A stretch of 63,489 nt of DNA, counting the filler, from Anaerolineae bacterium (GTDB lineage Bacteria; Chloroflexota; Anaerolineae; Epilineales; Epilineaceae): the NCBI GenBank assembly GCA_029262755.1. It is 3 parts of 3 records of this genome, joined end to end, with 100 filler letters (N's around TTAATTAATTAA, not from the genome) between each part and the next. Parts side by side here need not be neighbours in the genome. Positions count along the whole stretch, not along the records: positions 1 to 29,318 come from JAJCYU010000380.1; positions 29,419 to 59,802 come from JAJCYU010000383.1; 1 more part is not named here. The stretch is one strand, 5' to 3'. This document shows positions 10,057-42,034 of this stretch, in pieces (positions within the stretch are counted from its first letter, which is position 1; every line of letters begins with the position of its first letter). The notes under the pieces are model-generated. The model ran no database searches, had not been told where the DNA came from, and saw only the letters and a list, made by a program, of their open reading frames with translations. The position numbers and the translations under genes were made by a program.

Positions 10057-10941
10057 ATGGATGAACCGAGCATCCGACGCCTGATCTCGCATGTGGCGTC
10101 GACAAACGAGGATGAGTTGGACTGTGAGGCCGCCGAGCCGTGGATGGAAGAGGCGGCGGATGCGTCCACCATACCTACGCGGCTGGCCCATCATCTCCGC
10201 CGCTGCCCGGCATGCGCCGAGATCTTCGCTGCGCTGCGGGCCGCCGTTTCGCTCGAACGATCCGCATCGCTGCCTAGCGTGCACGAACTCTGGCACGACA
10301 TCCGTGCCGCGTGCCGCGAGCCGCAGGCCGTGGACGTCCAGCCCTCTGCAACGGATTCACCGGCACTCGCGCCGGCGCCGCTCTCGGTTGACCTCCCAGC
10401 CCCGACGCCTGCGCCTACCGCTCGTCGTAGGCTGTTTGCGTTCCTAGCCGGTGGCGGTGCGGGTAGCGCCGGACGCCCGCTCGTTCCCGCATTGTTGAGC
10501 CTGATCGTGTTGCTCGGCGCGGCGGGCTGGTGGCAGGCCTGGCGCATGAACGGCCGACTCGCTGGGATGCAAGCCGTGATGGTCGAGGCCGAATCGTTTG
10601 AGGACATGGTCCGATTGGTCAATCGGTCCAGCTTCGGCCAGGCCGATAGCGGTGCCTGGGCACGCATCATCTACCACGATGACCTCGAGCGGGGGATGGT
10701 CTATGCGGGAGCCCTGCCCGTGCTGATGGACGGTCAAGAGATCGCCTGTTGGATGGTCGGTCGGGACGGTAGCAAGGAGCTCGCGTGGCAGGGCGTTCAC
10801 GAAGAATCCGATACCGCGGATCAAAGCTGGTGGCCGGTAACGGTCAGCGGCCCGCTCCGCGACTACGCGACCATGATCATGACGGTCGAACCCACCGGCG
10901 ACGTGCTGGTCGAGGTTCCCTTCACGGATCCGAACAGCTAG
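10057..10941 (+). CDS. Putative zinc-finger (ZAS) transmembrane anti-sigma factor, RskA-like
   Basis: N-terminal C...HLRRCPAC (HxxxCxxC), one hydrophobic helix (LVPALLSLIVLLGAAGWW), then an extracytoplasmic domain ending MTVEP, reminiscent of RskA. Confidence 0.7.
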   Translation: MDEPSIRRLISHVASTNEDELDCEAAEPWMEEAADASTIPTRLAHHLRRCPACAEIFAALRAAVSLERSASLPSVHELWHDIRAACREPQAVDVQPSATDSPALAPAPLSVDLPAPTPAPTARRRLFAFLAGGGAGSAGRPLVPALLSLIVLLGAAGWWQAWRMNGRLAGMQAVMVEAESFEDMVRLVNRSSFGQADSGAWARIIYHDDLERGMVYAGALPVLMDGQEIACWMVGRDGSKELAWQGVHEESDTADQSWWPVTVSGPLRDYATMIMTVEPTGDVLVEVPFTDPNS

Positions 10942-25686: not shown

Positions 25687-27318
25687 ATGAACCTCGGCCC
25701 TCGTTCCTTTGCATCGCGCCTCGTCGTCGGCTTCGCCGCGGGCATCGCGCTCGGGCTGGCAAGCTCGCCGAACGGCCCCGTCCGTGCGTGCTCGTGTCTG
25801 CCTCCGCCACCGCCTGCCGAGGCCCTGTTCGAGGCCGATGTCGTCTTTCGCGGCACGGTGACGCAGCTGCAGCGCGTGCCGGACAACCGGGCGCCGCTAC
25901 CCGGATTTCGAACGATCGAGGCCACCTTGACGGTTGCCACGACCTGGAAGGGCGAGGCCGCGACGGAACGCAAGGTGTACACCAGCGGGGACAGCGCCTC
26001 GTGCGGCTACCCCTTCCGACTCGGTGATGACGTGATCGTGTACGGCGATCTCGACACGGATACACCCGAGCCGCGCGGCCTGCTCAGCACCTACTTGTGC
26101 TCCCGCACCCGCGCCTTCGCACCGGGCGAGGCCGCGGCGTTGGACGCGGCGATCCCATCGCCCACACCCGGCGCCGAGCCGACCCCAGGGCCTTCCCCCA
26201 CGGCGCCGGCGCCGACCCCCGCACCGACCCGCCCGCCGTGCCCCGCCTGCCCGGCGCCGATGCCCGACCAAGCCGCGGTGGCGCGCTACGATGCGGTGTT
26301 CCACGGCCAAGTCCGCTCGGCGACGGCCCTGGGGGCCGCCGACGACTGGGCCTACCGCGTACGCTTCGATGTGGTCGATGTCTGGAAGGGCGATGTCCAT
26401 GCCGTCGAAACCGTGACCGTCCTAGCCGTGGCGTGGTTCTGCGGCCAAGGGTTCGAGCGTCTCGGCGAATCCTGGCTGGTCTTCGCGCTCGACGAGCTCG
26501 AATCCCAAAACGCTCGCTTCCGCATCGACATCTGCAGCCCCACGATGGGCTTCTCGCCCGATATCGCGAGCCAGATGGGCCCGTCCTGTGCCCCGCCGCG
26601 TGTCGAGCTCTCTGCCGAACGCACGCAGCTTTCCGTCGGCGAGACGACCTTCGTCGAGCTCGCCCACTTCGACATGGCGCCGATGACGGTTACGTTGATC
26701 GCGGACCCGCCCGGCATCGTCGAGGTCGGCGCGTGCTTCGTGCCGGAGGACGAACGCCAATGCCGTCGCTTGCCGGTGCGCGCGCTCGCCGAAGGCGCCG
26801 TGACCATCGACGTGCTCGCCCTAGGCGATCGCTGCCGCTGCGTGGATGGTCGCTGCGGCCAGGATGCGGGCAGCGCGTCGGCGCCGAACCCGCTGCGCCT
26901 CGACATCTTCGGCGCTAACGGTCCGGGCACCGCGACGAGCGCACCGCCGGCGACCGCAACCCGCCCGCCTGGGACGCCGGAGCCGACAGCCGAGCCGTTC
27001 ACGGTGCGGGGCCGCGTTCTCGATGCCGTGACCCGACGCAACGTCGAGGGGGCGACGGCCATCGTAACCGTGCTCCCAGGGACGTGCGAAGGGCCCATGG
27101 TTACGCTGCGGGACGGCTTCTTCAGCCGCAATTGTCAAACCACGCTGCCCGCAAGTCTGGAGATCACGATCGCGGCGGACAATTACGAGGATTGGAGCCG
27201 CCGATTCGCGATCCCTGTCGGCGGCCGGTGGGACCGGATGCTCGAGGTGTCGCTCACGCCGCTCGACCGCGGCGACGGTCCGATCTATCTTCCCCTAACG
27301 ATGCGCGACGCCCGTTAG
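25687..27318 (+). CDS. Secreted Cys-rich protein with two TIMP/NTR-like domains, PT linkers, an Ig-like region and a C-terminal IYLP tail
   Basis: Signal-peptide-like N-terminus ending VRA|CSC; ADVVFRGTV...WKG...T......CGYPF..G...VY......CSRT, repeated as YDAVFHGQV...VWKG...CG..F......LVFA...CSPT; ends IYLPLTMRDAR. Confidence 0.75.
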   Translation: MNLGPRSFASRLVVGFAAGIALGLASSPNGPVRACSCLPPPPPAEALFEADVVFRGTVTQLQRVPDNRAPLPGFRTIEATLTVATTWKGEAATERKVYTSGDSASCGYPFRLGDDVIVYGDLDTDTPEPRGLLSTYLCSRTRAFAPGEAAALDAAIPSPTPGAEPTPGPSPTAPAPTPAPTRPPCPACPAPMPDQAAVARYDAVFHGQVRSATALGAADDWAYRVRFDVVDVWKGDVHAVETVTVLAVAWFCGQGFERLGESWLVFALDELESQNARFRIDICSPTMGFSPDIASQMGPSCAPPRVELSAERTQLSVGETTFVELAHFDMAPMTVTLIADPPGIVEVGACFVPEDERQCRRLPVRALAEGAVTIDVLALGDRCRCVDGRCGQDAGSASAPNPLRLDIFGANGPGTATSAPPATATRPPGTPEPTAEPFTVRGRVLDAVTRRNVEGATAIVTVLPGTCEGPMVTLRDGFFSRNCQTTLPASLEITIAADNYEDWSRRFAIPVGGRWDRMLEVSLTPLDRGDGPIYLPLTMRDAR

Positions 27319-27327
27319 GAGCCACCG

Positions 27328-27999
27328 GTGACCTTCACGACCTTACTATTCCTCGGCCTGATCCTGCTTTTGGTCCTGGCGTTCTTCGCCGGAATCACGG
27401 GCCGCATGTCCACGCCGGGCACGATCGTGTCCGTCCTGGCGTTCCTCGGACTCGCCGCCGTGGCGCTGACCGCGGTCTTCGTGCCGGAACCCTATGAGAA
27501 CCTCGCCGACTTCGGCCTCAAGCAGGCCGGCGTACGCGACACCATTCGCGAAATCGACGACCAGTTCTTCTTGGACGATCTTGCGGCAAGCGGTGCCGGC
27601 CTCGCCGACCAGCTGCGCGAAGCCCTGCGCGGCGACGACCCGCTCTTGGATCGCTTGCGCGGCCTGTTGGGCGACGACGTGGTCGGTGATGAGAGCGTGG
27701 CCGAGGAGATCGTGGAAGAGGAGGCCGTCGACGAACGTGGTGTATTCGAGCGCCGTCTCTACCCGGCGCTGGTAGACGTCTTCGCGGGCGTGCTGCGCAT
27801 CGCGGCCTTGATCGCGGCCCTCTCCGGTCTCGTGGCCGCCGTCGCGCTGGCCGCGGCGAGCGGCGCCATGCGCCGCATTGCAGCCGGCAGCCAACGTCTG
27901 GAGCGCGCGGAGGCGCGGATCGCCTCGTTGGAAGCCGCGGCCCGCCTGGCGGGAACCATGGATCGCGGACCCGCAACGCCACCGGCGGACGGTTCCTAG
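27328..27999 (+). CDS. Hypothetical membrane protein
   Basis: AGGAG RBS before GTG; three hydrophobic helices and a C-terminal coiled-coil-like segment. Confidence 0.7.
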   Translation: MTFTTLLFLGLILLLVLAFFAGITGRMSTPGTIVSVLAFLGLAAVALTAVFVPEPYENLADFGLKQAGVRDTIREIDDQFFLDDLAASGAGLADQLREALRGDDPLLDRLRGLLGDDVVGDESVAEEIVEEEAVDERGVFERRLYPALVDVFAGVLRIAALIAALSGLVAAVALAAASGAMRRIAAGSQRLERAEARIASLEAAARLAGTMDRGPATPPADGS

Positions 28000-28168
28000 C
28001 ATCGTGGCGCGAAGCGAGCGGATTCCGGCGACCGCACCTGATGGACGCCGGCAGGACGATCGCTTCGATGTTGCACGACAGGATTGCTCGCTGTCCGCTC
28101 GCTTCGCGGGGACACGACGTCGTACCCGGCTACGGCGTGGTCGCGCCCGGCGCGCAGTTCGACGCTGC

Positions 28169-28732
28169 ATGCGCACCTACCGCGCACACACGCGGTCGGC
28201 ACGTATCGTGGCCGTACTCGCGACGTTCGCCGGGCTCGCCCTGACGCACGCACCCGTCGCCCACGCGACCTGCTTCATCGAATGCCGTGCCACGCTGCGC
28301 TATCAGGACTGTGAGCTCCCCGCCCTTCGCGGCCTGTGGCCGGCGGGCGTGCCCTTGACCTTCACCGCGACCTGCCAAACCTGTTGCTCTCCGCCCGGCG
28401 GTCCGCTGCATTGCGAAGACACGCTCGTCGACGAGCCCGAGACGACCCTGAGCCTACGGGTTGCGAACGGCCCCGTCCTCGACGCGCCCTTCGTGCCGTT
28501 GGTGCTGCGCTGCGAAAACGAACGGCTCCGCCGCTTCGACGGCCCGGACCTGGGCCCGGGCGACTACTGGCTGATGCACGAGCCCGCCTCGATCCTCGTG
28601 GAGTTCTCCGTACCGGAAGGGCCCACCCCGTCCCCGACGCCGACCGCAACCGTAACCCCCGGCCCCAGCCCGACGCCCACGATGGGCGCGGTCGTGTCAC
28701 GCGCCGTCCTGCCCCTGCTCATTCGACGCTAG
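28169..28732 (+). CDS. Small secreted Cys-rich protein with a PT linker and a C-terminal xxLP tail
   Basis: Signal peptide ending AHA|TCFIEC, several Cys, PTPSPTPTAT linker, ends RAVLPLLIRR. Confidence 0.7.
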   Translation: MRTYRAHTRSARIVAVLATFAGLALTHAPVAHATCFIECRATLRYQDCELPALRGLWPAGVPLTFTATCQTCCSPPGGPLHCEDTLVDEPETTLSLRVANGPVLDAPFVPLVLRCENERLRRFDGPDLGPGDYWLMHEPASILVEFSVPEGPTPSPTPTATVTPGPSPTPTMGAVVSRAVLPLLIRR

Positions 28733-28996
28733 CGCTCAAGCACTCGAGCGCGCGGGGGGGGCGTGGCCCTCAAAGCCGGCGATATGCGGAGCCGCGCGGC
28801 CTTGCGCAGACGAGCTAAGCCCGCTCTTGGGCGACGTCGAATACGTGACTCGCGCCTCCCCGTGCGCTGTGGTCGACCGTGCTCCCGGCGAGCGGCGCCG
28901 CACGACCACCGCATCCGCGTGAACCCCGCGACCGCGGATGCTCTATTCTTCTTCGCCCTACCGCCCCCCACCGCCCCAACGGAAGGCAGCGAGCCC

Positions 28997-29318
28997 ATGT
29001 CCCGTCGCCAGACCGCCCGCGGACCACGCTCCGTGCCCGCCCTGATCTCGGCCGCGCGATCCACGCGTTGCGCGCGCCCCGTCGATCGCCAATCGACGTC
29101 AAACGGTCGTCCCCGGCCCGGTCTGCCCCATCTGTGCCGTCGCCCCAGCCCCAGCCCCCACGCGCGCGCCGCGACCCGATCTCTCGCGCTGGTCCTCCTG
29201 CTTGCGACGGCCGGCTGCGGTGAAGACGCTCCTCCTCTACGCGACTTGCTCGGTGGCGCCTCACCGACGCCCACCGCGACGGCCACGGCGACCGCCACGA
29301 GCACGCCGACGCCCACGG
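28997..29318 (+). CDS. Putative lipoprotein, N-terminal fragment truncated at the contig end
   Basis: LALVLLLATAGC lipobox followed by a PTPTATATAT linker running into the gap; start uncertain. Confidence 0.5.
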
Positions 29319-29418
29319 NNNNNNNNNNNNNNNNNNNNNNNNNNNNNNNNNNNNNNNNNNNNTTAATTAATTAANNNNNNNNNNNNNNNNNNNNNNNNNN
29401 NNNNNNNNNNNNNNNNNN
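29319..29418. other. Artificial contig linker
   Basis: N44-TTAATTAATTAA-N44, with stop codons in all six frames. Confidence 0.97.
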
Positions 29419-31377
29419 GAGGACGGCCGCGCGCCCGTGGTGATGGCGCGTAGCGAGTTCCTGGGCGGCATCGTGGACGAGCTGGTTGTCGGAAACGGAT
29501 ACGCGATCGCCGCGTTGCGCGGTCATGGCCTGGCCGTGCTCGGGCTGGCTGACCCCCGCACGCCGCGCCTGCTCTCGCGGCTCTCGGACGCTGGACGTTA
29601 CATCGAGCGTTCGCAAGGGGGTGGCATGGCCGTGATCGATGGCGGTCGTCTGGCTGTCGTGGGAACCTGGCCCGGTGCGATCCAGGCGATCGATATGAGC
29701 GATCCTACGCGGCCACGCTTGCTGCGCCCGGAGCCGCTCGAGAGTCCCATGCTCGGCGTAGTGACCGACGGGGAACGGCTATTCGTCGGGAGCGCGCGGG
29801 AGTGCAAGGATCAAACTGAACTTTGTACTATCGCGATTCGCAGCTATGAACCCGCAGGCGGCGCAACTGGGTTGGTGGTTCATCAGGTGAGCGGAAGCGG
29901 CGCTGGCGATTCAAGGCACCGGCTCATTGCGGCGGGTGGAGGTCACGTCGCCCTTGTGGGCTCAGGCCATCTTAGGGTTTGGAATCTCGCGGAAGACGTG
30001 CACACGCTATCCAGTCGGGGAAGCCAACGATACGCTGGCGATTCCGTCGCGGTGATCGACGCGACGGGACTGTACATTGCGGATTCCTCGTTGCCGTTCA
30101 TTCGCCACTTTGGCCCATCCATGTTCCCCAATGCCTGGACGGAGCGCGAGCCCGTTCCCTTGCCTCCCCACGCGCTCGGCCACCATATGGTGCGCAATGG
30201 TGAGCGTCTGGTTGTAGCGGGAGGCGGAGCCGGCCTGTTGGGCTGGAAAGTTGGCGACGGGCTGGCGCGCGGGTTCCTGCACATGGACAACGGCCTGGGC
30301 TACGTTCACGATGTCGCGTTGGGCGGACGGGTGGCCGCGTTGGCCAGCCTGCGCGGATGGTCGGTCGTGGACACGCTCACGCCCAATTCGTTGCGTCAGA
30401 TCGCACACCATCCGACCAGCGAAGCCGTGAGCGCGGTGGCCTCATGGGGCTCGCGCTTCGCCGTGGCCAGGAAGCACACTCGGCCAAACGGACAAGGCTC
30501 AAGCCAGGGTCTATCGCTTGACTTCGCGCAGCTCACCTTCTTGGATGCCGATGCGTCCGGTGACGTGCGGCCGTTCCGCACCGTTGAGCGTCCTCTAGAG
30601 GGTATGCCGCTCGACATCGAGGTTGAAGGGAATCGGGCGGTCGTCTCGGTCGCGCGGGGTGCCGTGCTTGAGTCGAATCTGGCGCCGCAGCCCGAGCTGA
30701 CGGGGAAGCAGGCGTTTAATCCTGTGCTCTTCGACTTAGCTCTTCAGGGTGAACGCGTGTGGGCAACCTATACAGAAAACGATGGCCGAATCGGAATCCG
30801 AATGTACGAGTATGGGTTGCAGCGCGAGTGGCAGCCGAACAAGGGTGTAGCGTTGCCAATCTCCTTCTTCCCACCGGCGATGCGCTCCGCGGGCCGGCCC
30901 CGCGCGCGCCCGCGGCCGGCCGTGGATGCCGACGGCCGGATAGCCGTCTTCGTCGACGGCCACGATCTCTTTACGATCGGTCTCGACGGTGGCGCCGATC
31001 CGGTGATTCTCGGAGCGGTCGACCTTCCGCCGGCGGTGTCTTTGCAGCCGATCGCGCGGGGCATGGTCACGATCGGCGGTTCCGGTGAGGTACCCGGCAG
31101 CGAGCTGTTCGACAACGAGGTCGACGTTGCGCTGGCGGGCCGGCGCACGGCCTGGGTGGCTCATGGCGATTCCGGGGTGATCGGCGTCGATGTCAGCGTA
31201 CCCAACTTCCCGAGCGTCTTCGCCACCCACGATACACCGGGCGATGCACGCCGGTTGGTCGTGGCAGGCGATCGGATTTGGGTCGCGGACGGCGAAGGCG
31301 GGTTGTTGGTCCTGCAACGCACCGATGGCGTGACCGTGGGCCGCGCGTGGCTACCCTTCGTGGGTCTAGGTCGCTAA
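29419..31377 (+). CDS. LVIVD-repeat (beta-propeller-like) surface protein, 5' truncated, with a C-terminal xxLP tail
   Basis: GLAVLGLADPRTP, IQAIDMSDPTRP, DVSVPNFP...DTPGDA...WVADGEGGLLVL; ends RAWLPFVGLGR. Confidence 0.75.
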   Translation, partial: EDGRAPVVMARSEFLGGIVDELVVGNGYAIAALRGHGLAVLGLADPRTPRLLSRLSDAGRYIERSQGGGMAVIDGGRLAVVGTWPGAIQAIDMSDPTRPRLLRPEPLESPMLGVVTDGERLFVGSARECKDQTELCTIAIRSYEPAGGATGLVVHQVSGSGAGDSRHRLIAAGGGHVALVGSGHLRVWNLAEDVHTLSSRGSQRYAGDSVAVIDATGLYIADSSLPFIRHFGPSMFPNAWTEREPVPLPPHALGHHMVRNGERLVVAGGGAGLLGWKVGDGLARGFLHMDNGLGYVHDVALGGRVAALASLRGWSVVDTLTPNSLRQIAHHPTSEAVSAVASWGSRFAVARKHTRPNGQGSSQGLSLDFAQLTFLDADASGDVRPFRTVERPLEGMPLDIEVEGNRAVVSVARGAVLESNLAPQPELTGKQAFNPVLFDLALQGERVWATYTENDGRIGIRMYEYGLQREWQPNKGVALPISFFPPAMRSAGRPRARPRPAVDADGRIAVFVDGHDLFTIGLDGGADPVILGAVDLPPAVSLQPIARGMVTIGGSGEVPGSELFDNEVDVALAGRRTAWVAHGDSGVIGVDVSVPNFPSVFATHDTPGDARRLVVAGDRIWVADGEGGLLVLQRTDGVTVGRAWLPFVGLGR

Positions 31378-31885
31378 CCCGATGCCACCCATGGTCGCAC
31401 AGCCTTCCGCGCCGCGGACCGCTCACGGGAGTAGCGGTGGCCGTGCGGGCCTTTGAACTGTGCCCACGTGGGCAGCGCTGAGAAGTTCCCGTTCCCGGAC
31501 GGAGCACCGGACATCGCTATGCACCGGCTACCCCCCCCATACACGGCTCGGGGATTACCGCGGCCGAGTGGGGTCACGTGACCGCGGACCGCGGGCGTCC
31601 CTCTGCGGACCATGGTCGTGTCATACGCTAGGAGTGCTGCGATGCACGCGGACTCCGGTCGGGCGATTCGACACTGCGCCTCGCACCACGCGATGATCCG
31701 CGCGATCAGCGCGATTCGGGAACTCTCGTTGCGGGCACCGCGGTGCTGTAGGATGCGCGATGTGCGTACTGTCCGCATGAACGGAGCTACGAGCAGGTGC
31801 GGACAACTGAGGGCAACAGCGGATAACGGGGGGCGGCCGTGAGAAGACGAACTAGACTCGCGCTTGCGCCGGAACCAGTACAACC

Positions 31886-34264
31886 GTGACCTGCGCCGTG
31901 CGAGCCCGCATACGGCTCGTCGCGTTGGGCTGCGCGCTCGCCGTGCTTGCGACGACCGCCGGGGCGGTCGCGTTCGCATCGGGCTACCCACCTTCGCGCA
32001 GCGAGCGCGACGCAGATGCGGGGCATGGTCGCGCGACGACGTCGGCGCTCGAGCGCGCACGTCCGATCGAGCGTGCTCCGGTGGTCGGCACGCGCGTGAT
32101 GCGCGAGGAAGGCCGGCTGGGTCCCGTCTCGCAGTCCGGAAGCCGCGTCATCAGCGACGAGGCGCCCGCCCGGCTGCGCGTTCAGCACATCCTCGGCGGC
32201 TACCGCTCGTCCGTCGTGGCTGCCGCGGACGGGCGGCACGTGTATGTCGGCGTGGGGGCGCGCATCGAGGTGCTGCGCGTGCCGCCGGTCGGCGATCCCA
32301 TCCGCGTGTTCGAAACGCCGCCGCTCGTGACGCTCCTGCGTGAGAACGTGTTCGATCTTGAGCGGGAGGGCGACCGGCTCGTGGCGACCATCGACGGGCG
32401 GCTCATCGTGCTCGACCTCGCGGATCCGCTGCGACCGGTCGTGATGGCGGAGCTGCTCATCGGGCGCAACGCGCTCAGCCTGGACGTCATGGGCCGCTTC
32501 GCCGCCGTGCTCGACGGCACGGACGCGGGAGGTGTGATCGTCGACCTCGCCGCCGAGGATGGGCCGACCGTGATCGCAGCGATCGATGTGCCGGGCTTTG
32601 AGGGCGACCTTGCGTTCGCGTTCGGTGGGCGCTTGCTCTACGTGCTTGGCGGTTCGGCTGACGGGCAGTCGAGCGGTGTGCCTTGGGTCGTTGATCTCGA
32701 AGACCCCGCGTCACCACGAGTCGTAGGCTCCCTGGATGTTTCGGGAGCCGGTGCGCTCGCCGTGGACGACGAGAGCGGGCTGCTGTGGATCGTGGCGGCC
32801 GGTAGTCGCGCTGATCGCGCCGGCGTAGAGCCCGAACCTACGTGGCTGCGCGCGTACGACCTGGCCGGCACGGACCCCAGGCTCGACCCCGGTGCGGACG
32901 CTGGGGCGGCCCGCTTGCTTGAGGAGATCCGGCTGAAGGGCAAGCGGGTGCATCGCCTGCGCGCCGAAGCGGGCCTGGCATACCTCGGGACCTGGACGTG
33001 GGACACGCCTGTCGGCCGCGTTGGCAGCGTGCACGTCGTTGGCCGGAACTCCGCGGGCACGGAGCTCGCGCAATGGGGCCACGGCGAAGGTCCCGGCCAG
33101 CCGCGCGATTTCGCCGTGCTCGGCGACGGACGCCTGGTGGCCGTCCATGACCTTGGCCTGTCGGTGTGGGGTCCCGCCGTCGAAGAGTCGGGCGGGGATG
33201 GCATCAGCGCGCCTCTTGTGATGAACGAGCAAGGTCGCCTCGGCGGTCCCGGATGGTGGAAGCAGGTCGCGACGATACGAGACAAGGTCTATCTGGGCGT
33301 GGACTACGCGTTGCAGGTGGTCGATGTCGGAGGTGAAGTGCCCCAGACTCGCGGGTTCATCTTCGAGCTGGGTGATCGAAGAAACTTGATGAACGGTCGG
33401 GGAAAAGGAATGGCGCTGGATGGCGGCCGCGTGATCATGGCGAACCGCGACGCGGACATCGTGCACGTGCTGGACGTCTCGGACCCAGACGCACCGCGCG
33501 AGACGGGCCGCTTCATCAGCACGGGGACCACGCGCTTCTTCGCGGAGGCCATCGCCGCGCGCGATGGCCTGGCGTTCCTCGCGCCGATGACCGATCCGCT
33601 GCTCGTGTTGGACGTGGCGGATCCGGCCGCGCCGACCGTTGCGGGATTCCTCGCCGGCGAGGAGGGTGTGTTCACGGCCGGAGGCACGATCGCCCTTGGT
33701 CCCAAGTATGCATATGTGGCCGGATCGTACCTACGCAACGCAGTCGGACGGCGGATCGCCGTGGTCGACGTCCACCGTCGCGCCGGCCCCGCGTTGCTCG
33801 CAACGCTCGAGGTGCCCGGTGATCGCCCCCAAGTAGAGGGCTTGGCCGTGTCCGGGGACGTCCTCGTCGCATCCGTTGAGGCGACCGCGGGCGGCCGCCT
33901 GATGGTCGCCGATATATCGGATCCCCACAATCCCCATTGGCTATCCTCTTCCGCCGATATCGGCTCGGAGCCGCTCGTGCTGGCCTACCATCCGCCGTGG
34001 GTCTACACCATCGGCTGGCCGAACGGGCTCAGCGTGTTCGACCTCAGCGATCCCTCGTTGCCGCGAGAGGTCGCGCGCCTGCCGGACGTCGCCGGCGCGA
34101 ACGCCTTCGCCGTGGGCGAGGACGGCCGGATCTACGTGGCGGCGGGGGCCGGGGGGCTGGTGACGGTGGCGTTCAGCACGGGCGGGGAGGGCGAGGCGGG
34201 TGACCGTGATCCAAGAGTGCTGCTGCCATGGGTCGGCCGGTCCTACGCATTGGGGGGACGCTAG
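31886..34264 (+). CDS. Secreted LVIVD-repeat protein with a C-terminal xxLP tail
   Basis: Signal-peptide-like N-terminus; many repeats (LIVLDLADPLRP, VLDVSDPDAP, LVLDVADPAAP, VADISDPHNP, VFDLSDPSLP); ends RVLLPWVGRSYALGGR. Confidence 0.8.
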   Translation: MTCAVRARIRLVALGCALAVLATTAGAVAFASGYPPSRSERDADAGHGRATTSALERARPIERAPVVGTRVMREEGRLGPVSQSGSRVISDEAPARLRVQHILGGYRSSVVAAADGRHVYVGVGARIEVLRVPPVGDPIRVFETPPLVTLLRENVFDLEREGDRLVATIDGRLIVLDLADPLRPVVMAELLIGRNALSLDVMGRFAAVLDGTDAGGVIVDLAAEDGPTVIAAIDVPGFEGDLAFAFGGRLLYVLGGSADGQSSGVPWVVDLEDPASPRVVGSLDVSGAGALAVDDESGLLWIVAAGSRADRAGVEPEPTWLRAYDLAGTDPRLDPGADAGAARLLEEIRLKGKRVHRLRAEAGLAYLGTWTWDTPVGRVGSVHVVGRNSAGTELAQWGHGEGPGQPRDFAVLGDGRLVAVHDLGLSVWGPAVEESGGDGISAPLVMNEQGRLGGPGWWKQVATIRDKVYLGVDYALQVVDVGGEVPQTRGFIFELGDRRNLMNGRGKGMALDGGRVIMANRDADIVHVLDVSDPDAPRETGRFISTGTTRFFAEAIAARDGLAFLAPMTDPLLVLDVADPAAPTVAGFLAGEEGVFTAGGTIALGPKYAYVAGSYLRNAVGRRIAVVDVHRRAGPALLATLEVPGDRPQVEGLAVSGDVLVASVEATAGGRLMVADISDPHNPHWLSSSADIGSEPLVLAYHPPWVYTIGWPNGLSVFDLSDPSLPREVARLPDVAGANAFAVGEDGRIYVAAGAGGLVTVAFSTGGEGEAGDRDPRVLLPWVGRSYALGGR

Positions 34265-34342
34265 TTCAGAAGCGCTCGTCCCCCCGGAAACGGTGCGCAC
34301 GTCGTAATCGACAGTGAGCGCGCCAAGAAGCGAGGTGCTGGC

Positions 34343-36502
34343 TTGACCGGAAATGACATTACTCGTCCCACCCTATCCACCTGCGCCGTGGCCCGACGCG
34401 GTGCCCAGTCTCGACGTCGCGGACTTGTTGTCGGCCTCGTTGCCGTAGCGGCCATTGCGATGACGAGCTTCGGAGTTCCTAGGGTAAGCGCCGCTGATCC
34501 GGAGACGCTGCGTTTTGTCGAGCAGCGGGGCGGTGCCACCTACGCCGTAGATGCGGCCGGAAACCGGATCGTTGCAGGCTTAGGGCCACGGGTCGCGGTG
34601 TTCCGCCTCGCAGAGGGAGGGCTTGAGCTCGTGGCGCACACGCCGGTGATGTCCGCGGTGGTCGAGGAGATCGCGTTGGCCGGCGACCGTGTCCTGGTTG
34701 GCCTGCGCGGCGGTGACGTTCACGTAGTTGATCTGCAGGACCCATTGCGCCCCAGGATCGGGCCGCGTCTTGTGCCTGGCATCGCGCGCCGGCACGCGGA
34801 CGGCAGCCCGAGCCTGCCCCCCGCGATGCCACCACATCCTTCGATGGCCTGGACTGCAAACGGGAGGGTGGGCGTGGTGGTCTACGGGCGGGGCCTGCGC
34901 GCCTTCGACCTGCAGCACGCGCTGACCCCTGGCCCAGCGCAGACGATGCTGTTTGATGGACAGATCGTGGGCGTAACCGGAGGTGACGTCGGGATCGTTG
35001 CGGCGGAGAAACACGGGCCGTTGCACCGGATCCAACTCGACGATACAGGCGCGTTGGCGAGACCAATCGACTCCCGCCCTGTACCGCAGTCGTTCTTCTT
35101 CCACCAGCTTTTTGATGGGCGCGGCGAGCAACTCCTGATGTCAACCGATGCCTTGACCCTCGGTGTCTTCGATTTAGGCACAGGTCTGTTCGACACGATG
35201 TTTCTGCGCCCCAGGGCTCTGGAGCGCGGGGTGAGCGGGCCTTGGCGGGCATGGCTGGCGGCTCTCGGCAGCGGTGAGATCGTCTCGACCGCGCTACGTC
35301 CGGACTCCGTGACGCTCGACGCGAAGTCCTCCGATAGCCATCCGCTGCCGGACGGCGCTGAAGCCTATGATCTGGCTGTCACAAATGGTCATCTCGTTGT
35401 GGCGGGCGGCGCAGGCGGCCTGCTCGTCTATCGCCTGGACGGCACGGCCCATCCGCCCTTGGTCGCCCAGTACCGCGACCCGCTGCCGACCGTGCTCGAC
35501 GTTGCGGTGATCGAGGGCGGCAAACGGCTGATCGCGACCACCAGCTCGGGCTGGTGCAAGCTGGATTCATTCCAGCCGCTGCGCGTACAGGCGTGCACGG
35601 ACACCGCGGAGCCGCCTCTGGCCGTCGCGTCCGACGGACGTTGGGCGCTCGTAGCGACGCATGAAGATCGTTCGCCTCCGCCTCCGCGACCGCTCGTCGA
35701 GTCCGTGACGATCGTGCACGTGCTAGGGCCGGATGGACAGGGCGGCACGAGGCTCGTGCGCACGATCGAGCGCACCAGCGACGGCCGGCCGCGTGCCGCC
35801 GTAGTGCGCGGCGGGCGTGGCTACGTCGTGACGGACCGAGGACGGCTGCTGACGATCGAGATGGATGCCGAGCCCTTGCCTCGGGTCGTGGGCAAGATCG
35901 ACCTCGACATAGACGCGACGGACATATCCGTCGCGAACGGGCTTGCCCTGGTCGCCTACGCGCGCGGTGGTCTCGGCGGGGCGATGCCGGTGGATCTCAC
36001 GCCCTCGGCACCTCAGCCACCGCGCAGGGGAACCGATCTGCAGATGAGCATGGGCCGAATCTCGCCCAAGGTCGGACTCATGGGCGCAATTGCCGTGTTT
36101 GCCAACGGCAACGCCGCGCAGGTCGTGGAGACCAGTCCGGACGGCACATTGCGCCCGATCGGTCTGATCGATATGCCGCCCGCGTCCCCGTCGCCGCTAC
36201 GCTTTGAGCTGCCGGGCATGATGCCCGGCGGAGACGGCCTGTCCCGGGACGGTGTCGGCCTAAACGTTGCCGGCGGCAGCGTGTGGCTCGCGCAGGGCGC
36301 AGCGGGACTTCACCGGCTGGACTTGTCGTTGCCGAACCATCCGGAGGCGCTGCCTGTCTATGACACGCCCGGCAGCGCATTGGCCAGTGCTATCGCCGGT
36401 CCATGGGTTACGGTCGCGGACGGTGACGGTGGGTTGCTCGTGCTGCGAAGGGCGGACGGGGCATGGTCCGCACGCGCGTTCCTGCCGCGGGTCATGCGTT
36501 AG
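34343..36502 (+). CDS. Secreted LVIVD-repeat protein with a C-terminal xxLP tail
   Basis: Signal-peptide-like N-terminus; VHVVDLQDPLRP; LVVAGGAGGLL; DTPGSA...VADGDGGLLVL shared with 29419..31377; ends RAFLPRVMR. Confidence 0.78.
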   Translation: MTGNDITRPTLSTCAVARRGAQSRRRGLVVGLVAVAAIAMTSFGVPRVSAADPETLRFVEQRGGATYAVDAAGNRIVAGLGPRVAVFRLAEGGLELVAHTPVMSAVVEEIALAGDRVLVGLRGGDVHVVDLQDPLRPRIGPRLVPGIARRHADGSPSLPPAMPPHPSMAWTANGRVGVVVYGRGLRAFDLQHALTPGPAQTMLFDGQIVGVTGGDVGIVAAEKHGPLHRIQLDDTGALARPIDSRPVPQSFFFHQLFDGRGEQLLMSTDALTLGVFDLGTGLFDTMFLRPRALERGVSGPWRAWLAALGSGEIVSTALRPDSVTLDAKSSDSHPLPDGAEAYDLAVTNGHLVVAGGAGGLLVYRLDGTAHPPLVAQYRDPLPTVLDVAVIEGGKRLIATTSSGWCKLDSFQPLRVQACTDTAEPPLAVASDGRWALVATHEDRSPPPPRPLVESVTIVHVLGPDGQGGTRLVRTIERTSDGRPRAAVVRGGRGYVVTDRGRLLTIEMDAEPLPRVVGKIDLDIDATDISVANGLALVAYARGGLGGAMPVDLTPSAPQPPRRGTDLQMSMGRISPKVGLMGAIAVFANGNAAQVVETSPDGTLRPIGLIDMPPASPSPLRFELPGMMPGGDGLSRDGVGLNVAGGSVWLAQGAAGLHRLDLSLPNHPEALPVYDTPGSALASAIAGPWVTVADGDGGLLVLRRADGAWSARAFLPRVMR

Positions 36503-36649
36503 TAGTTCAACCAGCTTGGAGGTGCGGGTAGTGAGAGAGCCAATGTGCCGCGCCGGTGGTTCGCAGAGCGGAGGGAATCGCAGCGCTATTGCCGACGAGC
36601 GGCGGGTCGCTGGCGTGGATGCAGTGGCTCCCGAACCCGTAGGTTCAGG

Positions 36650-38198
36650 GCAAGCGTTCAGGTGGGCCAGACGATCGAGTTGCCAGGCTGGTCCGGATAG
36701 CGTAGCGTGGAGCCATGATCCACCCACTGACCGAGCACGGGCTACTCCACTACGATCGTGTACGCGACCTGGAGGGGCTCAGTGCGCGGCAACGGGCGAC
36801 CATCAGGCGCCAAGCCACGTTTCTGAAGGAAACTCGGGCAGGGAAACGAGCTGCCGACGGCGAGATCCGGCGCCTGGAAGCACGGATTCGGCAGCTCGAG
36901 GAGCGTCTCGGCCGCAACTCCTGCAACTCGTCGCTGCCACCGTCTGCGGATGGTCTCGAGGTGTCCCGTCCGAAGCGTCGAGGCAAGAGGAAGAGTCGAC
37001 GTGGCGGTCGCAGCGGACATCCTGGTCGGAGTCGTCCGCTACTTCCGGTCGAGGAGGTTGACCATGTGGTCGACTGCTAGCCTGACTGCTGCTGTGCCTG
37101 CGACTACCCCTTGGCTGGCGAGGATCCGCGGCCGTAGCGGCATCAGGACAGCGACATTCCGGAACCGCGCATCGATGTGACGGAGTATCGCCGACACCGG
37201 CTGAAGCGTCCCACCTGCGGCCGGGTCACGACTGGTGCGTTGCCGGATGGTGTGAGCCACAGCAGCTTCGGCCCGCGGTTGCACGGAATGAGCTCGCTGC
37301 TGACCGGCCGGTTCCTGCTGAGCAAGCGCGACGTCGCGGAACTCTATGAGATTGTCTACAACCTTGGCCTCTGCAGCGGCAGCGTCATCGCGATGGAGAA
37401 GCGGATTGCCGCGGCCGTGGCGGACCCCGTGCAGGAGGCGATGGAGTGGGTACGTTCTGCCGCGGTGGTGCATCCCGATGAGACGAGCTGGCGGGAGAAC
37501 AAGTCCTGCGCCTGGCTCTGGACCGCGGCCACAAATCGAGTGGTGGTCTTCAACATCCACCGACGGCGGAGTCAGGAAGCGGCCAAGGCCCTGCTCGGGG
37601 AGGACTTCGCCGGCGCCATCGGCAGCGATCGCTACGGTGCCTACAACTGGATCGAGCGGCGAGGCTACTGCTGGGCGCACCTGAAGCGCGACTTCCAAGC
37701 CATGGCCGAGCGCTTTGGCAGCGAGTGGTACGGCTGCCGGCTCGTGGCGGGAGCCAAACGCGTAATGACGACTTGGCGGCTGCATCAAGACGGCGAGATC
37801 AGTCGACAGGAGCGCGATGATCGTCTCACCGATGAGCGGCGTCGCATCTACCGGCTCCTGGTGTCCGCCAAGGAACGTGCTCCGGCGAGGAAGACCCGGC
37901 GCGAGTGCGCCGAGCTCCTCAAGACGCACGAGCGCATGTGGACGTTCATGGAAGTCGAGGGGATGCCTACGACGAACAACCTGGCGGAGCGATGTCTCCG
38001 CCGGGCGGTCATCTGGCGCAAGAAGTGCTTTGGCACCGACTCCGAATCCGGAACCCGATTCGTCGCCCGCATCCTGTCGGTCGTCACAACGCTACAGCTA
38101 CATCAGCGGCCGGTCTTCAAATTCCTCGTTCAAGCGCGGGAGGCAAATGTCTATGGAACCACTCCACCGTCGCTCTGCCCAACCACGTGATCACTCAC
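36650..38198 (+). mobile_element. Degenerate single-ORF IS66-family element
   Basis: Transposase pseudogene bounded by weak imperfect inverted ends, GCAAGCGTTCAG (36650-36661) and GTGATCACTCAC (38187-38198). No clear target-site duplication. Confidence 0.6.
36715..38190 (+). pseudogene. IS66 transposase (TnpC) pseudogene with two in-frame TAG stops
   Basis: NS.NSSLPPS.D, zinc-ribbon region, HPDETSW, SDRYGAY, CWAHLKR, TNNLAER.LR. TAG at 37078-37080 and 37135-37137; the frame is otherwise continuous. Confidence 0.88.
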
Positions 38199-38347
38199 GA
38201 GCAGCAGAAGTCTATCGCAACGGCTGTCGAGGCATGCTGTCCGACGCGCTCTCTCTGCGAGAGTCCGTCGGACAGCATGCGCTGTTTGTGACATCATGAC
38301 CGTCGGCAATTCTCTCTAACTCGCATACATAGAAGGGGTTCGTGACC

Positions 38348-41300
38348 ATGTTCAGTGCTTGGCGGCCAGCCTTTATTGCAGTGATCGTCTCTACAGTCGT
38401 CGCAGCATGGCATTGGCCGAGATTGGCGGCCGCACAGCTGGGGCCGCAAGCCACTATCGTGCTCTACGGTGACAGCATCAACTGGAGGGGAGACTCTGGG
38501 CAGGAGGTCGGCGTTGAATTGTTCCGCGATGGACTTGGTATTGGAAATGGCGCCGGACGCACAGGTACATCGGGGGCCGTTGCGATACGGATAGAGGGCA
38601 GCGCTGGAGCAAATGTGATTTCGATCGCCCCTGGGGATGAAATTCAAGTATTTGCAGGCACCGACTACACAGAGACTATTTCGATCCCGAGCCTTCACGC
38701 GACGGTGACAGATGCTGGGGCAAGTGTCGCGGTGACCGCGCCAACTGGTGTATCTGTTGCGCTCAAGCGGATCATCAATGGCACATGGTTTCGCACCGAA
38801 TTTCTTGGAGAGGTCGAGATCAATGAATCGGGCACAGGTGAGATCCGGTTGCCTCTAGCGGAGCCGAATCTGCAAGGGCTGGCCGAGATCAAGATGGATG
38901 GGCGTCATACGTTTCGTGTTGCCTTCGCTCGACCGCGTGTGTACGTCGATGTGAGTTCCGGACGCATAGAGGGGCAGGCCACGTACGGCACACAAGTCGC
39001 TCTCGAGCTTCGAAACAGGTTGGGGCAAGTTACAAGCGTGAACACGGCAGTCCCTGAAACGCGGAACTCTATGGATTGGCTGGCAACGTCGGACGGCGCT
39101 TTTGCGCTAGGGGCAGGAACACAGATCACCGCGACACACACGGACGCACATGGCACTCGGAGCGTTTCGACTTCGGAAGCGCCCCAGATCAGTATCACGG
39201 TCGATGACCGTAGCGGAGCCTTGGCTGGAGTTGGGCCGCCGAAATCCGATCTCCACCTCGTGTTGCGAGACGGTGATGGTGTAGCGATCACACGCACAGT
39301 GCGCACTGACGCTGACGGTGCCTACCGGGCTAGCTTGCCAGGGATTGACACTTCACAGGGGGTGGCGGCGGACATCACATACGATACAGGTGGAGTCTTC
39401 GTCTTTCGCGCATTGTACGTCATCGACAGTATCTCGATCGGACTCTATTCCACGGATGTGCTGGGGTTCGTCGGGCTGGCAGACGTGCCGGTCCGCGTGG
39501 AGGTTCGGAGTCCGGAAGGGGACGTGAAAGCCGAAGGCTCCGTCCGCACCAACGACCATGGCCGCTATCGATTCTCCATGTGGGTGTCGACCGACCCGAG
39601 GGTCGAGCAGGATTTGCTACTGCTCCCAGGGGATATCGTAACCATCGACCTAACGGACGGGGACGCAAAGAATGTGGTGGTGCCGGACATCCGTGTAACT
39701 GTTGATGTGGAGAATGAAAGGCTTAGCGGACAAGCACTGCCTTCCTCGGTTGTGTGGGCAGGTATCGGGGAAAGCGACACGGTTGACACTTCGCACCACA
39801 CCGTCGCCGATCCAATCGGACAGTTTGAACTCACATTTGGCGATCGGGAGCTTCGCCGGCCGATCAGCGGCATCTTGGAGGTGAGGACCGCAAATCGCGT
39901 ACGATTCACGATGGGCTGGGCCGCACCGGAAGTCACTATCGAGCTTCACTCAGGGGAGATTCGAGGGTTGGGGCCACGAGGGCTTCCATTGTCCGCTAGG
40001 CTTGTCGACTCTGACGGCAAGGTGGTCGGCGGCAAAGAGTTCTCTATGCGGGCCAGGAATCATGAGCCGGTCGGTCACTGGGTGACCAATCTTCGGGACT
40101 GGGCGGGAGAAATCAGTCGCGCGACATCTGGCGACGTACTACAGCTTGATGTTGCGAGCGAACGTATTGCGATCGCGATTCCATGGCTGCACAGCGAGGT
40201 CAATGTCGAGACGGATGAAGTGCATGGACAACTGAACCCGCAAAGCAAGGCCACACTTACCATCGGCCGAAAGAATGAGGGTGGGCGCTTTGTCCAACGC
40301 ACGTCCGTCACTGTGGAGGGTGATGCTCAGGGGCGATTCGCCCGCGACTTTTCCGGGGTCTACGATATTCGGCTGAATGACGAGATCAGGTTGGAGTACG
40401 AAGATCCAGCCGGTCATCGGATACTCCACTACCGCAGCGTCCCAGGAGTAGTGATCGACATCGATCGTTCGGCAGTCCATGGCTACAGTGAGCCTGGGGC
40501 CAGTATTGTCGTTGATAGGGGAGACGATCATTGGGCTGGCCAAGCATCAGCCTCTGGACAGTACTTCATCGAGCTAGGAGCCGGACTGCGCGGTAGTATG
40601 CTGAGTGTAGGAGATCGAGTGACGGTGCGGCGTCAATTGACGGATGGCTCCGATACCATTCTCGCATCCGTCAAGATTCCCGAATTCACGCTCCTGGTCG
40701 ATGAGGATCGTGGAGCGGTACGGGGTGCAGCCCCGCACCCAGGCGAAGTCGATCTTCACGTAGTCCATACGTTCAGACGGACAATTGGCGGCGGCACCTC
40801 TACGTTTGGATTTCGACGGGCAACGGTGGCGGAGTCAGGGCAATACGAAGTGCAACTGGACAGGATTGGAGTGCTCGGATCTACAGTTTCCACGGAACCT
40901 GGTCAACGATTCCGGGCGATTCTGAGCTTGGACAATGGTGTGCAACTCGTGCGCTGGAAACTCTTCCCTATCGCGAATGCCCAACAAAGAGGCGCCCGAG
41001 TCTGCGGGTACGGACAACCCAGGACTGAGGTGTCGGCGCGGGTCGTTGGTGGGCCGGCCGAAGGTGCAAGCGGCAACGCGCTCGTAGCACGGGACTTCTC
41101 CTACGAGATTGAGCTTCAGCATGCATCTGGGGAGCCGGCCACTCTGGGAAACGGGTCTCGGCTTGAAGTGTCTTTTCCCGGTGGCACAGAGACGATGACC
41201 ATACCTCGATTCGATTTGGACACCGCCTGGAATTATCAATCAGCCCAGCGAAATGTACCTTCGACTCGCATTTCGGGCTGGGTAGGTATTGGGACAATGT

Positions 41301-42034
41301 TGTACTTGAAGATGCCTGCAAGCGGATGTCTTCGTGGAAATACGGATGCGTTCTCGCTTGAACTCACCAGATCTGAGTGGTTTGACTATGCAGAGGCACC
41401 TCGTGTTAATCCAGGGAATGGGCTTCTGCTCGGTCATTTCCTGGGGACAGGTCATCGACAATTCCACCTGAAGATTCGCCCTAGGCTCCAAGTCTTCGTT
41501 CGCTCGAACCGCATCTCCGGGGACGTATCTCCGGGTATACGCACGACATTACGCCTGGTGGATCCAAGCGGGCGCGAAGTAGCAACCGCCGAGGAAACAG
41601 GGGATACCTTTGGTCGCTTCGATGCAGTATTGACAGACCGAGTCGGCCTGGCAGAAGCAACGCTGCAGCCAGGCATGAAGATCGGTGTGCAGTTCGGCGC
41701 CGTTCGGGAAGAGATCATCATCGACGACATCAGCTTCGACTACAGTCCGGAGACAGGAGTTGTCGTCGTTGCCGCAGCCAATCGGCCAGTCCGAGTTGAA
41801 TTCGACACGCTGGACGGTCGCACCCACAAAGTTGCTGGCACAACGAACGCCGATGGGCGCTGGCTGATATCCCCGCAAGAACTGCCGGCGCGTGCCGGCT
41901 GGACACTTGCCGACGTCGCCTTGATTCGAGCCGTTGCATGGAACCTCGCCGGGCACGAGTTCATCGCAGAGACGGAGATTCGCGGCCCCCGCGGAGAGAT
42001 ACGCGTATATCTGCCGATGGCACTGTATCGTTAG
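38348..42034 (+). CDS. Large secreted protein with tandem beta-rich (Ig-like) repeats and a C-terminal VYLP tail
   Basis: Signal-peptide-like N-terminus; recurring units (APQISITVDDRSGALAGVGPP, VPDIRVTVDVENERLSGQALP, IPWLHSEVNVETDEVHGQLNP, IPEFTLLVDEDRGAVRGAAP; TDADGAY, TNDHGRY, GDAQGRF, TNADGRW); ends RVYLPMALYR; visibly more A/T than its neighbours. Confidence 0.8.
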   Translation: MFSAWRPAFIAVIVSTVVAAWHWPRLAAAQLGPQATIVLYGDSINWRGDSGQEVGVELFRDGLGIGNGAGRTGTSGAVAIRIEGSAGANVISIAPGDEIQVFAGTDYTETISIPSLHATVTDAGASVAVTAPTGVSVALKRIINGTWFRTEFLGEVEINESGTGEIRLPLAEPNLQGLAEIKMDGRHTFRVAFARPRVYVDVSSGRIEGQATYGTQVALELRNRLGQVTSVNTAVPETRNSMDWLATSDGAFALGAGTQITATHTDAHGTRSVSTSEAPQISITVDDRSGALAGVGPPKSDLHLVLRDGDGVAITRTVRTDADGAYRASLPGIDTSQGVAADITYDTGGVFVFRALYVIDSISIGLYSTDVLGFVGLADVPVRVEVRSPEGDVKAEGSVRTNDHGRYRFSMWVSTDPRVEQDLLLLPGDIVTIDLTDGDAKNVVVPDIRVTVDVENERLSGQALPSSVVWAGIGESDTVDTSHHTVADPIGQFELTFGDRELRRPISGILEVRTANRVRFTMGWAAPEVTIELHSGEIRGLGPRGLPLSARLVDSDGKVVGGKEFSMRARNHEPVGHWVTNLRDWAGEISRATSGDVLQLDVASERIAIAIPWLHSEVNVETDEVHGQLNPQSKATLTIGRKNEGGRFVQRTSVTVEGDAQGRFARDFSGVYDIRLNDEIRLEYEDPAGHRILHYRSVPGVVIDIDRSAVHGYSEPGASIVVDRGDDHWAGQASASGQYFIELGAGLRGSMLSVGDRVTVRRQLTDGSDTILASVKIPEFTLLVDEDRGAVRGAAPHPGEVDLHVVHTFRRTIGGGTSTFGFRRATVAESGQYEVQLDRIGVLGSTVSTEPGQRFRAILSLDNGVQLVRWKLFPIANAQQRGARVCGYGQPRTEVSARVVGGPAEGASGNALVARDFSYEIELQHASGEPATLGNGSRLEVSFPGGTETMTIPRFDLDTAWNYQSAQRNVPSTRISGWVGIGTMLYLKMPASGCLRGNTDAFSLELTRSEWFDYAEAPRVNPGNGLLLGHFLGTGHRQFHLKIRPRLQVFVRSNRISGDVSPGIRTTLRLVDPSGREVATAEETGDTFGRFDAVLTDRVGLAEATLQPGMKIGVQFGAVREEIIIDDISFDYSPETGVVVVAAANRPVRVEFDTLDGRTHKVAGTTNADGRWLISPQELPARAGWTLADVALIRAVAWNLAGHEFIAETEIRGPRGEIRVYLPMALYR

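Follow-up and report, generated by a model that had tools for sequence, protein, structure and literature searches.

Six exported proteins of an Anaerolineae bacterium end in tails that probably belong to the YLP box, a putative C-terminal sorting tag of Chloroflexota

Introduction

Within a 63,489-nucleotide stretch of DNA from an Anaerolineae bacterium (Chloroflexota; GenBank assembly GCA_029262755.1), six genes that lie within 16 kb and represent four protein architectures encode nearly the same short C-terminal tail. This whole stretch, filler included, is called the window throughout. The locus raises the question of whether these tails are a chance resemblance or a tag carried by exported proteins and, if they are a tag, what might read it. 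An original prediction, made from the sequence alone, favored an undescribed sorting or anchoring signal. We report that the six tails are probably members of the Chloroflexota YLP box with a role in sorting, two of them in the canonical form and four in a relaxed form.

The display of proteins on the surface of Chloroflexota cells is poorly known, and many of the largest surface proteins of these cells carry the YLP tag; open reading frames (ORFs) among the matches to the curated model NF050076 reach 6,726 codons. As far as our searches reach, the tag is already curated but unpublished. It is known as a curators' label, and no paper naming YLP-box, ultrashort C-terminal or sort_motif_YLP was found in the literature searched, which agrees with the earlier remark that no mechanism has been described. 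None of the literature retrieved for PorU together with Chloroflexota mentions PorU, and the available part of a preprint on myxosortase (10.1101/2023.06.07.544157) makes no mention of Chloroflex, YLP or ultrashort. To this curated motif the window adds a set of relaxed tails from a deep-branching lineage, two cases of choice of anchor, and a controlled co-occurrence test of a candidate enzyme.

Results

The six tails share the design of a curated motif

Translation of the plus-strand ORFs yields C-terminal endings identical to the six originally listed, and a stop codon follows directly after each tail (Table 1). The shared pattern consists of a basic residue, a hydrophobic residue, an aromatic or other hydrophobic residue, the dipeptide L-P, two hydrophobic residues, any residue, and a basic residue, followed by 0–7 further residues. 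The tag cannot be called undescribed, because two NCBIfam models, NF050076 (NF050076.1; 11 positions, cut-off 15 bits) and NF053834 (cut-off 10 bits), are both named 'YLP-box putative sorting motif-containing protein' (sort_motif_YLP; ultrashort_CTERM).

Examination of 60 of the 95 NF050076 matches listed gave 53 tail-ending ORFs, a set that leaves out internal false positives, frames at contig ends, two frames of more than 6,000 codons, and short frames. The consensus of these 53 NF050076-selected tails is [YF]-[RTK]-V-Y-L-P-L-V-x-R plus 0–5 residues, and the window tails share its design column by column: position −4 is basic in five of six, position −3 is hydrophobic, L-P is present in all six, position +1 is hydrophobic in five, and position +4 is basic in four. 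The distance from the proline to the stop is 4–11 residues in the window tails versus 4–9 in the 53 canonical tails.

The DnaA protein of the window is at most about 53–55% identical to that of any species representative. In a maximum-likelihood tree of this one gene, the window falls in a clade with UBA7937 and Anaerolineales/Anaerolineaceae metagenome-assembled genomes (support 98/94). The tree has 29 rows, drawn from 80 loci, comprising the window, all 16 loci labeled Chloroflexota or Thermomicrobiota, and 12 outgroups; one row (L045) sits on an aberrantly long branch.

The tails stand out by sequence, position, and conservation

Regular expressions composed after seeing the data are circular, and we therefore built a log-odds matrix from the tails of other genomes. 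The matrix has 11 columns and was trained on 34 tails, none from the window, that belong to homologs of the LVIVD proteins, of gene 1 and of gene 6, to C25 peptidases, and to verified NF050076 matches. It was applied to 86,470 positions, which are all positions of the 582 six-frame window ORFs of at least 60 amino acids (aa), and ranked the six tails 1, 2, 5, 8, 21, and 144. Among the top 21 positions, six are no more than 8 residues away from an ORF end, as against 1.27 expected (binomial p = 0.0012); five of these are the tail genes and the other is a shadow ORF ending at 10447. By this measure the tails of genes 1 and 6 are canonical, those of genes 4 and 5 are borderline, and those of genes 2 and 3 are weak on their own. 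A HMMER profile made from the same 34 external tails did not separate signal from noise (best window tail 6.5 bits), and the log-odds matrix was used in its place. A degenerate DNA pattern (Y-L-P, two hydrophobic residues, any residue, a basic residue, stop) gave no more matches in five genomes (G001–G005) than its reversed control; neither P0004 nor C25 was found in these genomes.

Restriction of the motif to the C-terminus, which the original prediction had offered as a check, is clear for the gene-4 propeller. Of its 119 non-self homologs, 17 have the motif among their last 15 residues, where the internal rate predicts 0.57 (Poisson 1.3e-19).

Orthologs keep the tail in three of the four architectures, and a partial relative does so in the fourth. 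The gene-1 ortholog P0141, which has 61% identity overall, retains 13 of the last 15 residues; in a shorter gene-1 relative (41% identity over 46% of the query) the motif lies 21 residues before the end. Gene 6 has four non-self homologs; the pattern is preserved in the tails of three (P0130 and P0131, 53% identity; P0132, 29%), and the fourth ends otherwise. The two weak tails recur in relatives as sub-variants, with the fragmentary gene-2 relative P0161 (69% identity) ending in ..LHLPMLTRR and the gene-3 homolog P0106 ending in ..PRVFLPWNGLGR (FLPWNGLGR), the same sub-variant as tail 3.

The possibility that each tail is simply the last β-strand of its domain, which had been named as grounds for abandoning the proposal, was rejected from AlphaFold2 models of genes 4 and 5, each based on a 71-row alignment. 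In both, the propeller ends before the tail. The gene-4 model (predicted TM score (pTM) 0.78) has its last strand at residues 758–764 and a predicted local distance difference test (pLDDT) below 50 for residues 772–792, and the gene-5 model (pTM 0.80) has its last strand at residues 698–703 and a pLDDT below 50 for residues 708–719.

The tail is found on exported proteins

As originally described, signal-peptide-like N-termini are called by a heuristic predictor on all five of the genes whose 5′ end is intact. The same association holds beyond the window: 47 of 52 tail-bearing ORFs with a complete 5′ end, from 13 other genomes, are signal-peptide-like, and for genes without the tail, taken from 36 Chloroflexota loci, the figure is 112 of 299 (p = 2.8e-13). 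The heuristic is crude and over-calls, with 37% of the control genes positive and membrane proteins counted as positive.

The tail had also been described as absent from lipoproteins, and this held in the window, where none of three lipobox proteins has the tail (22329 and 56346, called heuristically, and 20605, with LTSGC recognized by eye). On the five genes with readable N-termini the heuristic calls plain signal peptides and no lipobox; the cysteine in the gene-4 signal peptide sits early in the hydrophobic region, as judged by eye. Beyond the window there is only a non-significant trend. Among LVIVD homologs, the tail occurs in one of 18 loose lipobox calls, that one being a false lipobox by eye, versus 16 of 101 others (p = 0.46). 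Among exported proteins of other Chloroflexota, a lipobox is called in three of 61 tail-bearing proteins, all ambiguous, versus eight of 112 tail-less ones (p = 0.75, or 0.05 if all three ambiguous calls are taken as false). The exclusion from lipoproteins is thus the weakest part of the finding: its direction fits an alternative to lipidation, and the data fall short of showing one.

Homologs carry recognized sorting signals at the position of the tail

Type IX secretion system (T9SS) C-terminal domains (PF18962 or PF13860) are present on 20 of the 119 LVIVD homologs and a dockerin on two, and none is present on the 17 that bear the tail. An exhaustive search of 1.84 billion representatives returned 48 non-self relatives of gene 2, of which 36 have a C-terminal hydrophobic stretch followed by a basic cluster. 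MYXO-CTERM models match 12 of the 43 relatives scanned (NCBIfam, E ≤ 0.01), with four over the curated cut-off; a 52-aa fragment, three matches to the Pro/Thr linker only, and one odd sequence were left out. Two unrelated families therefore carry recognized signals at the tail position, and the window exhibits a choice of anchor in which the same domains bear a T9SS domain or a MYXO-CTERM signal in other phyla where the window proteins bear the tail.

Two other short C-terminal endings recur among the LVIVD homologs, ..DGFESGD...W.. and ..VVDN.SGDPVY(I/V)PA.. (P0017, P0037, P0057, P0095; P0027, P0035, P0081). They come from other lineages, and no known sorting signal could be assigned to them.

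The established signals themselves were looked for on the six window proteins. A hydrophobic stretch of at least 12 residues plus a basic cluster at the C-terminus is present on none of the six, in keeping with the earlier statement that the tail is neither an LPXTG/sortase nor a PEP-CTERM/exosortase signal since it holds no membrane-spanning segment. The LPXTG type was rejected because all six tails lack a T-G after L-P as well as a hydrophobic stretch of at least 12 residues. The hydrophobic-stretch rule (0/6) also rejects PEP-CTERM, MYXO-CTERM, and the remaining tripartite types, and the six proteins gave no NCBIfam match to such signals. For the T9SS C-terminal domain there is no Pfam match in the six proteins, and the models end in a disordered tail right after the propeller.

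A PorU-like C25 peptidase co-occurs with the tail

The search for a partner used one fixed sample of 151 Chloroflexota genomes that carried no taxonomy, so that kinship is not corrected for in the co-occurrence figures. The denominators include two unpublished genomes, G043 and G150, about which no claim on tail or C25 is made; both are sortase-positive, and G043 is among the 83 TIGR02228-positive genomes. In six-frame searches with NF050076, a threshold of E ≤ 10 matched 11 of 14 control genomes and E ≤ 0.1 matched none. At E ≤ 0.1, 27 of the 151 genomes matched, and reading removed 11 as internal false positives to leave 16 with verified C-terminal tails.

The false positives of this search (loci L110, L112–L115, L117, L120, and L082) belong to two classes, one being the ends of histidine-kinase ATPase domains (..GSTFTVYLPLV..) and the other an internal motif, ..ERRVYLPLVIRAPAEALGAVD.., that is conserved in proteins of about 930–985 aa from several small genomes.

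Peptidase_C25 is present in 26 of the 151 genomes, and it is found in 13 of the 16 tail-bearing genomes versus 13 of the 135 others (odds ratio 41, p = 2e-9). The C25 proteins can themselves carry the tag. Twenty C25 ORFs were obtained from 18 of the 26 genomes, with two loci each from G149 and G104, and with five genomes that have only weak matches left out; 15 of the 20 end in the tag, including those of six genomes without an NF050076 match. In six of the 20 loci, large or giant tail-bearing cargo genes lie directly upstream of the C25 gene. The solved structure nearest to C25 is PorU (6za2_A, E = 2.3e-12). TIGR02228, an archaeal-type S26B signal peptidase, was not discriminating: it is over its cut-off in 38 of the 151 genomes and in five of the 16 that bear the tail.

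A subfamily of C25 proteins of 1022–1100 aa (loci L090, L091, and L097) has a sortase gene of 302–322 aa directly downstream and three small conserved genes upstream.

Gene context of the six tails

The six genes and their tails are listed in Table 1. The window is high-GC DNA (guanine-plus-cytosine fraction 0.61–0.72) and holds housekeeping genes for leucyl-tRNA synthetase, a second class I tRNA synthetase, pyruvate kinase, DnaA, and ATP-binding cassette transporters. Stop codons of the tail genes (five TAG, one TAA) are not clearly different from those of other window genes (14 TGA, 13 TAG, two TAA), and the 53 canonical tail ORFs display no stop-codon bias.

Table 1. Positions of the six tail-bearing genes and of their C-terminal tails in the window. 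Ranks and scores are those of the external log-odds matrix.
Feature	Coordinates	Strand	Description
Gene 1	25687..27318	+	543 aa, ATG 25687; signal peptide (heuristic), two Cys-x-Cys TIMP-like modules, Ig-like and CarboxypepD_reg-like parts, tail
Tail 1, GPIYLPLTMRDAR	27277..27315	+	Canonical YLP-box form; rank 2, 18.5 bits
Gene 2	28169..28732	+	187 aa, ATG 28169; signal peptide (heuristic), Cys-rich domain, Pro/Thr linker, tail
Tail 2, SRAVLPLLIRR	28697..28729	+	Loose form without aromatic residue; rank 21, 6.8 bits
Gene 3	29437..31377	+	LVIVD β-propeller; 5′ end masked by N runs 29319–29418
Tail 3, GRAWLPFVGLGR	31339..31374	+	Most divergent of the six; rank 144, 2.2 bits
Gene 4	31886..34264	+	792 aa; signal peptide (heuristic), linker, LVIVD β-propeller, tail
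Tail 4, PRVLLPWVGRSYALGGR	34211..34261	+	Motif plus 7-residue extension; rank 8, 10.3 bits
Gene 5	34343..36502	+	719 aa; signal peptide (heuristic), divergent LVIVD-like propeller, tail
Tail 5, ARAFLPRVMR	36470..36499	+	Rank 5, 11.0 bits
Gene 6	38348..42034	+	1228 aa, ATG 38348; signal peptide (heuristic), long Ig-like/MG2-like array, tail
Tail 6, IRVYLPMALYR	41999..42031	+	Canonical YLP-box form; rank 1, 23.3 bits

A database protein, P0140, shares its start with gene 1 (ATG 25687), and P0143 of the representative library is identical to gene 2 over 187 aa. The Cys-x-Cys module that follows the gene-1 signal peptide weakly matches TIMP (E = 5.5e-4, below the cut-off) and is internally duplicated, as judged from a second BLAST segment; gene 1 may encode a bacterial surface protein resembling metalloprotease inhibitors. 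Between genes 1 and 2 (27328–27999) lies a gene for a predicted membrane protein of 223 aa that has three hydrophobic segments and an acidic middle, for which no Pfam match and no ESM Atlas match was obtained.

Pfam LVIVD matches two of the three propeller proteins encoded by genes 3–5. The signal peptide of gene 5 includes SRRRGLVVG (window 34343–34500), a possible twin-arginine translocation (Tat) motif; if it is one, the tail would ride on Tat substrates too. Pieces of an IS66-family transposase (DUF6444, DDE_Tnp_IS66; 36715–38190) separate genes 5 and 6. The gene-6 region (38342–42034) has a GC fraction of 0.61–0.62 versus 0.66–0.70 in its neighbors, and gene 6, whose tail is the most canonical of the six, may have been acquired recently from a different Chloroflexota lineage.

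Discussion

The tails as a sorting tag and a candidate for its reader

The reading of the tails as C-terminal tags that sort or anchor exported proteins is well supported by indirect evidence, because the motif is restricted to the C-terminus, is conserved in orthologs, is positioned outside the fold, takes the place of other anchors, and is carried by proteins with signal peptides. This much of the original prediction stands, and what falls away is the novelty that it implied for the tag.

As judged from its sequence, the carrier protein would be exported through its N-terminal signal peptide. The pattern of anchor choice suggests that a dedicated factor beyond the cytoplasmic membrane would then read the unstructured, non-membrane-spanning tail and would retain or attach the protein at the cell surface. 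The earlier description of a tag read by an unnamed machine still applies, as only a candidate, C25, can be put forward. By analogy, our best single guess, and a tentative one, is that the factor is a PorU-like C25 cysteine peptidase that might cleave at the tag and transfer or release the cargo, as PorU does with the much longer T9SS C-terminal domain. In its fullest form, which we regard as speculative and somewhat doubtful, this proposal would have the YLP box and the PorU-like C25 constitute a T9SS-independent system for surface display, wherein a clan-CD cysteine peptidase, held by the same tag, recognizes this sequence of about 10 residues that has no membrane anchor, cuts it, and joins the cargo to some component of the envelope. 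Were this true, the reaction would be sortase-like with the shortest known bacterial sorting signal, and the four relaxed tails would show the sequence tolerance of the enzyme.

Several observations weigh against the identification of the tails, their role, or the C25 candidate. With hmmscan, run on whole proteins (E ≤ 1) and on C-terminal segments of 30 and 20 aa (E ≤ 10), NF050076 and NF053834 reported none of the six window tails and only one of four canonical controls, namely P0110 at 19.3 and 17.3 bits, respectively. Since three of the four canonical controls were missed, the filters of hmmscan rather than the scores may decide what is reported. Tails 2 and 3 score below every one of the training tails (11.7–29.8 bits), and the over-calling of the signal-peptide heuristic must be kept in mind. 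As for C25, no such gene is among the 39 window ORFs scanned with Pfam, and even a threshold of E ≤ 1 yields no C25 match in four tail-bearing genomes (G025, G054, G126, and G002), which may be incomplete. Conversely, G021, G057, and G110 have a tail-less C25 and no NF050076 match. The LVIVD cargo family, taken as a control, co-occurs with the tag as well (7/16 versus 7/135 genomes, odds ratio 14), so that some of the C25 signal reflects common descent or a similar lifestyle. Finally, the C25 family includes a sortase (PorU) as well as cargo proteases (gingipains), and C25 may be one more cargo.

The failure of the curated models, as run, to report any of the window tails suggests that the YLP tag is probably under-annotated in deep-branching lineages.

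Alternative explanations

If no enzyme processes the tail, it might serve as a passive anchor in which its cationic and hydrophobic residues stick non-covalently to the membrane surface, an anionic wall polymer, or a component of the S-layer or sheath. The composition of the tail, a short hydrophobic core between Arg/Lys residues, suits such a role, and the tolerance of much substitution and of 0–11 trailing residues fits a physicochemical function better than a strict protease site; the four tail-bearing genomes without a C25 match also point this way. However, L-P is invariant in all six window tails and in the 53 NF050076-selected tails, where the selection biases toward it, and an unvarying dipeptide of this kind points to a protein that recognizes it. 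Homologs elsewhere have enzyme-processed signals at the tail position, and we know of no binding partner for the tail. We therefore consider a passive anchor unlikely.

Another enzyme that could read the tag is a sortase-family transpeptidase for which the L-P core would be a truncated LPXTG-like signal. A sortase (PF04203) is indeed present in 15 of the 16 genomes with verified tails (110/151 overall), and by coordinates a sortase gene adjoins the C25 gene in five genomes (G104:C7, G149:C2, G053:C1, G065:C65, and G131:C241). However, 95 of the 135 genomes without verified tails also have a sortase (p = 0.07), and none was found in the tail-bearing genomes G081 and G017. The tails have neither T-G nor a membrane-spanning segment (0/6), unlike the sortase substrates described in the myxosortase preprint (10.1101/2023.06.07.544157), and recognition by a sortase is improbable.

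An extracytoplasmic tag for degradation or quality control, or a pro-peptide removed on maturation, would likewise be short, C-terminal, unstructured, and associated with peptidase genes, and would need no role in localization. Such a function is very improbable given that the tail sits where homologs have anchoring signals (T9SS domain, MYXO-CTERM, dockerin) and that the tag is kept on many large adhesin-like proteins.

The reading that the tails have no function, being chance or compositional resemblances or merely final β-strands, has in its favor that two of the six are weak matrix matches and that so short a motif finds similar internal strings in unrelated proteins, such as the histidine-kinase ends and the conserved internal motif, but it is hardly tenable and has largely been refuted by the tests made: the external matrix ranks and terminal enrichment, the excess of terminal motifs among LVIVD homologs, the conservation in orthologs, and the placement of the tail beyond the last strand at low pLDDT even where it closely follows the last blade.

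For the preferred reading, in which the tails are a sorting tag of the YLP-box type, a practical prospect follows: if the machinery behind it were identified, a surface-sorting tag of ten residues would make a convenient tool.

Comparison with known sorting systems

The tripartite signals (LPXTG/sortase, PEP-CTERM/exosortase, and MYXO-CTERM/myxosortase) resemble the window tails in that a short near-C-terminal signature marks exported proteins, several unrelated carriers occur per genome, and basic residues stand at the end; moreover, MYXO-CTERM-type ends occupy the tail position on gene-2 homologs. In the tripartite signals, the signature and the Arg cluster are separated by a hydrophobic segment that spans the membrane (10.1101/2023.06.07.544157), whereas none of the six window tails has such a segment. 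The membrane therefore cannot hold a substrate with such a tail in place for an enzyme that works within it or is tethered to it.

With the T9SS C-terminal domain and PorU of Bacteroidota, the window tails have in common that the signal is C-terminal on Sec-exported surface proteins, that the T9SS domain occupies the tail position in homologs of the window LVIVD proteins, and that PorU-like C25 peptidases both co-occur with the YLP tag and carry it, just as PorU itself bears a T9SS C-terminal domain. The T9SS signal folds into a domain of roughly 80–100 residues, in contrast to the approximately 10 unstructured residues of the window tail.

The NCBIfam YLP box differs from the window set in that four of the six window tails lack the tyrosine or other consensus residues, with V, W, L, or F instead of Y, with F, W, or R after P, and with G at +3, and in that one window tail has a 7-residue extension. 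The likeness extends to the location at the extreme C-terminus, the occurrence in Chloroflexota, the carriers with signal peptides, and the core of an aromatic or hydrophobic residue, L-P, two hydrophobic residues, any residue, and a basic residue; furthermore, window tails 1 and 6 score within the range of canonical tails.

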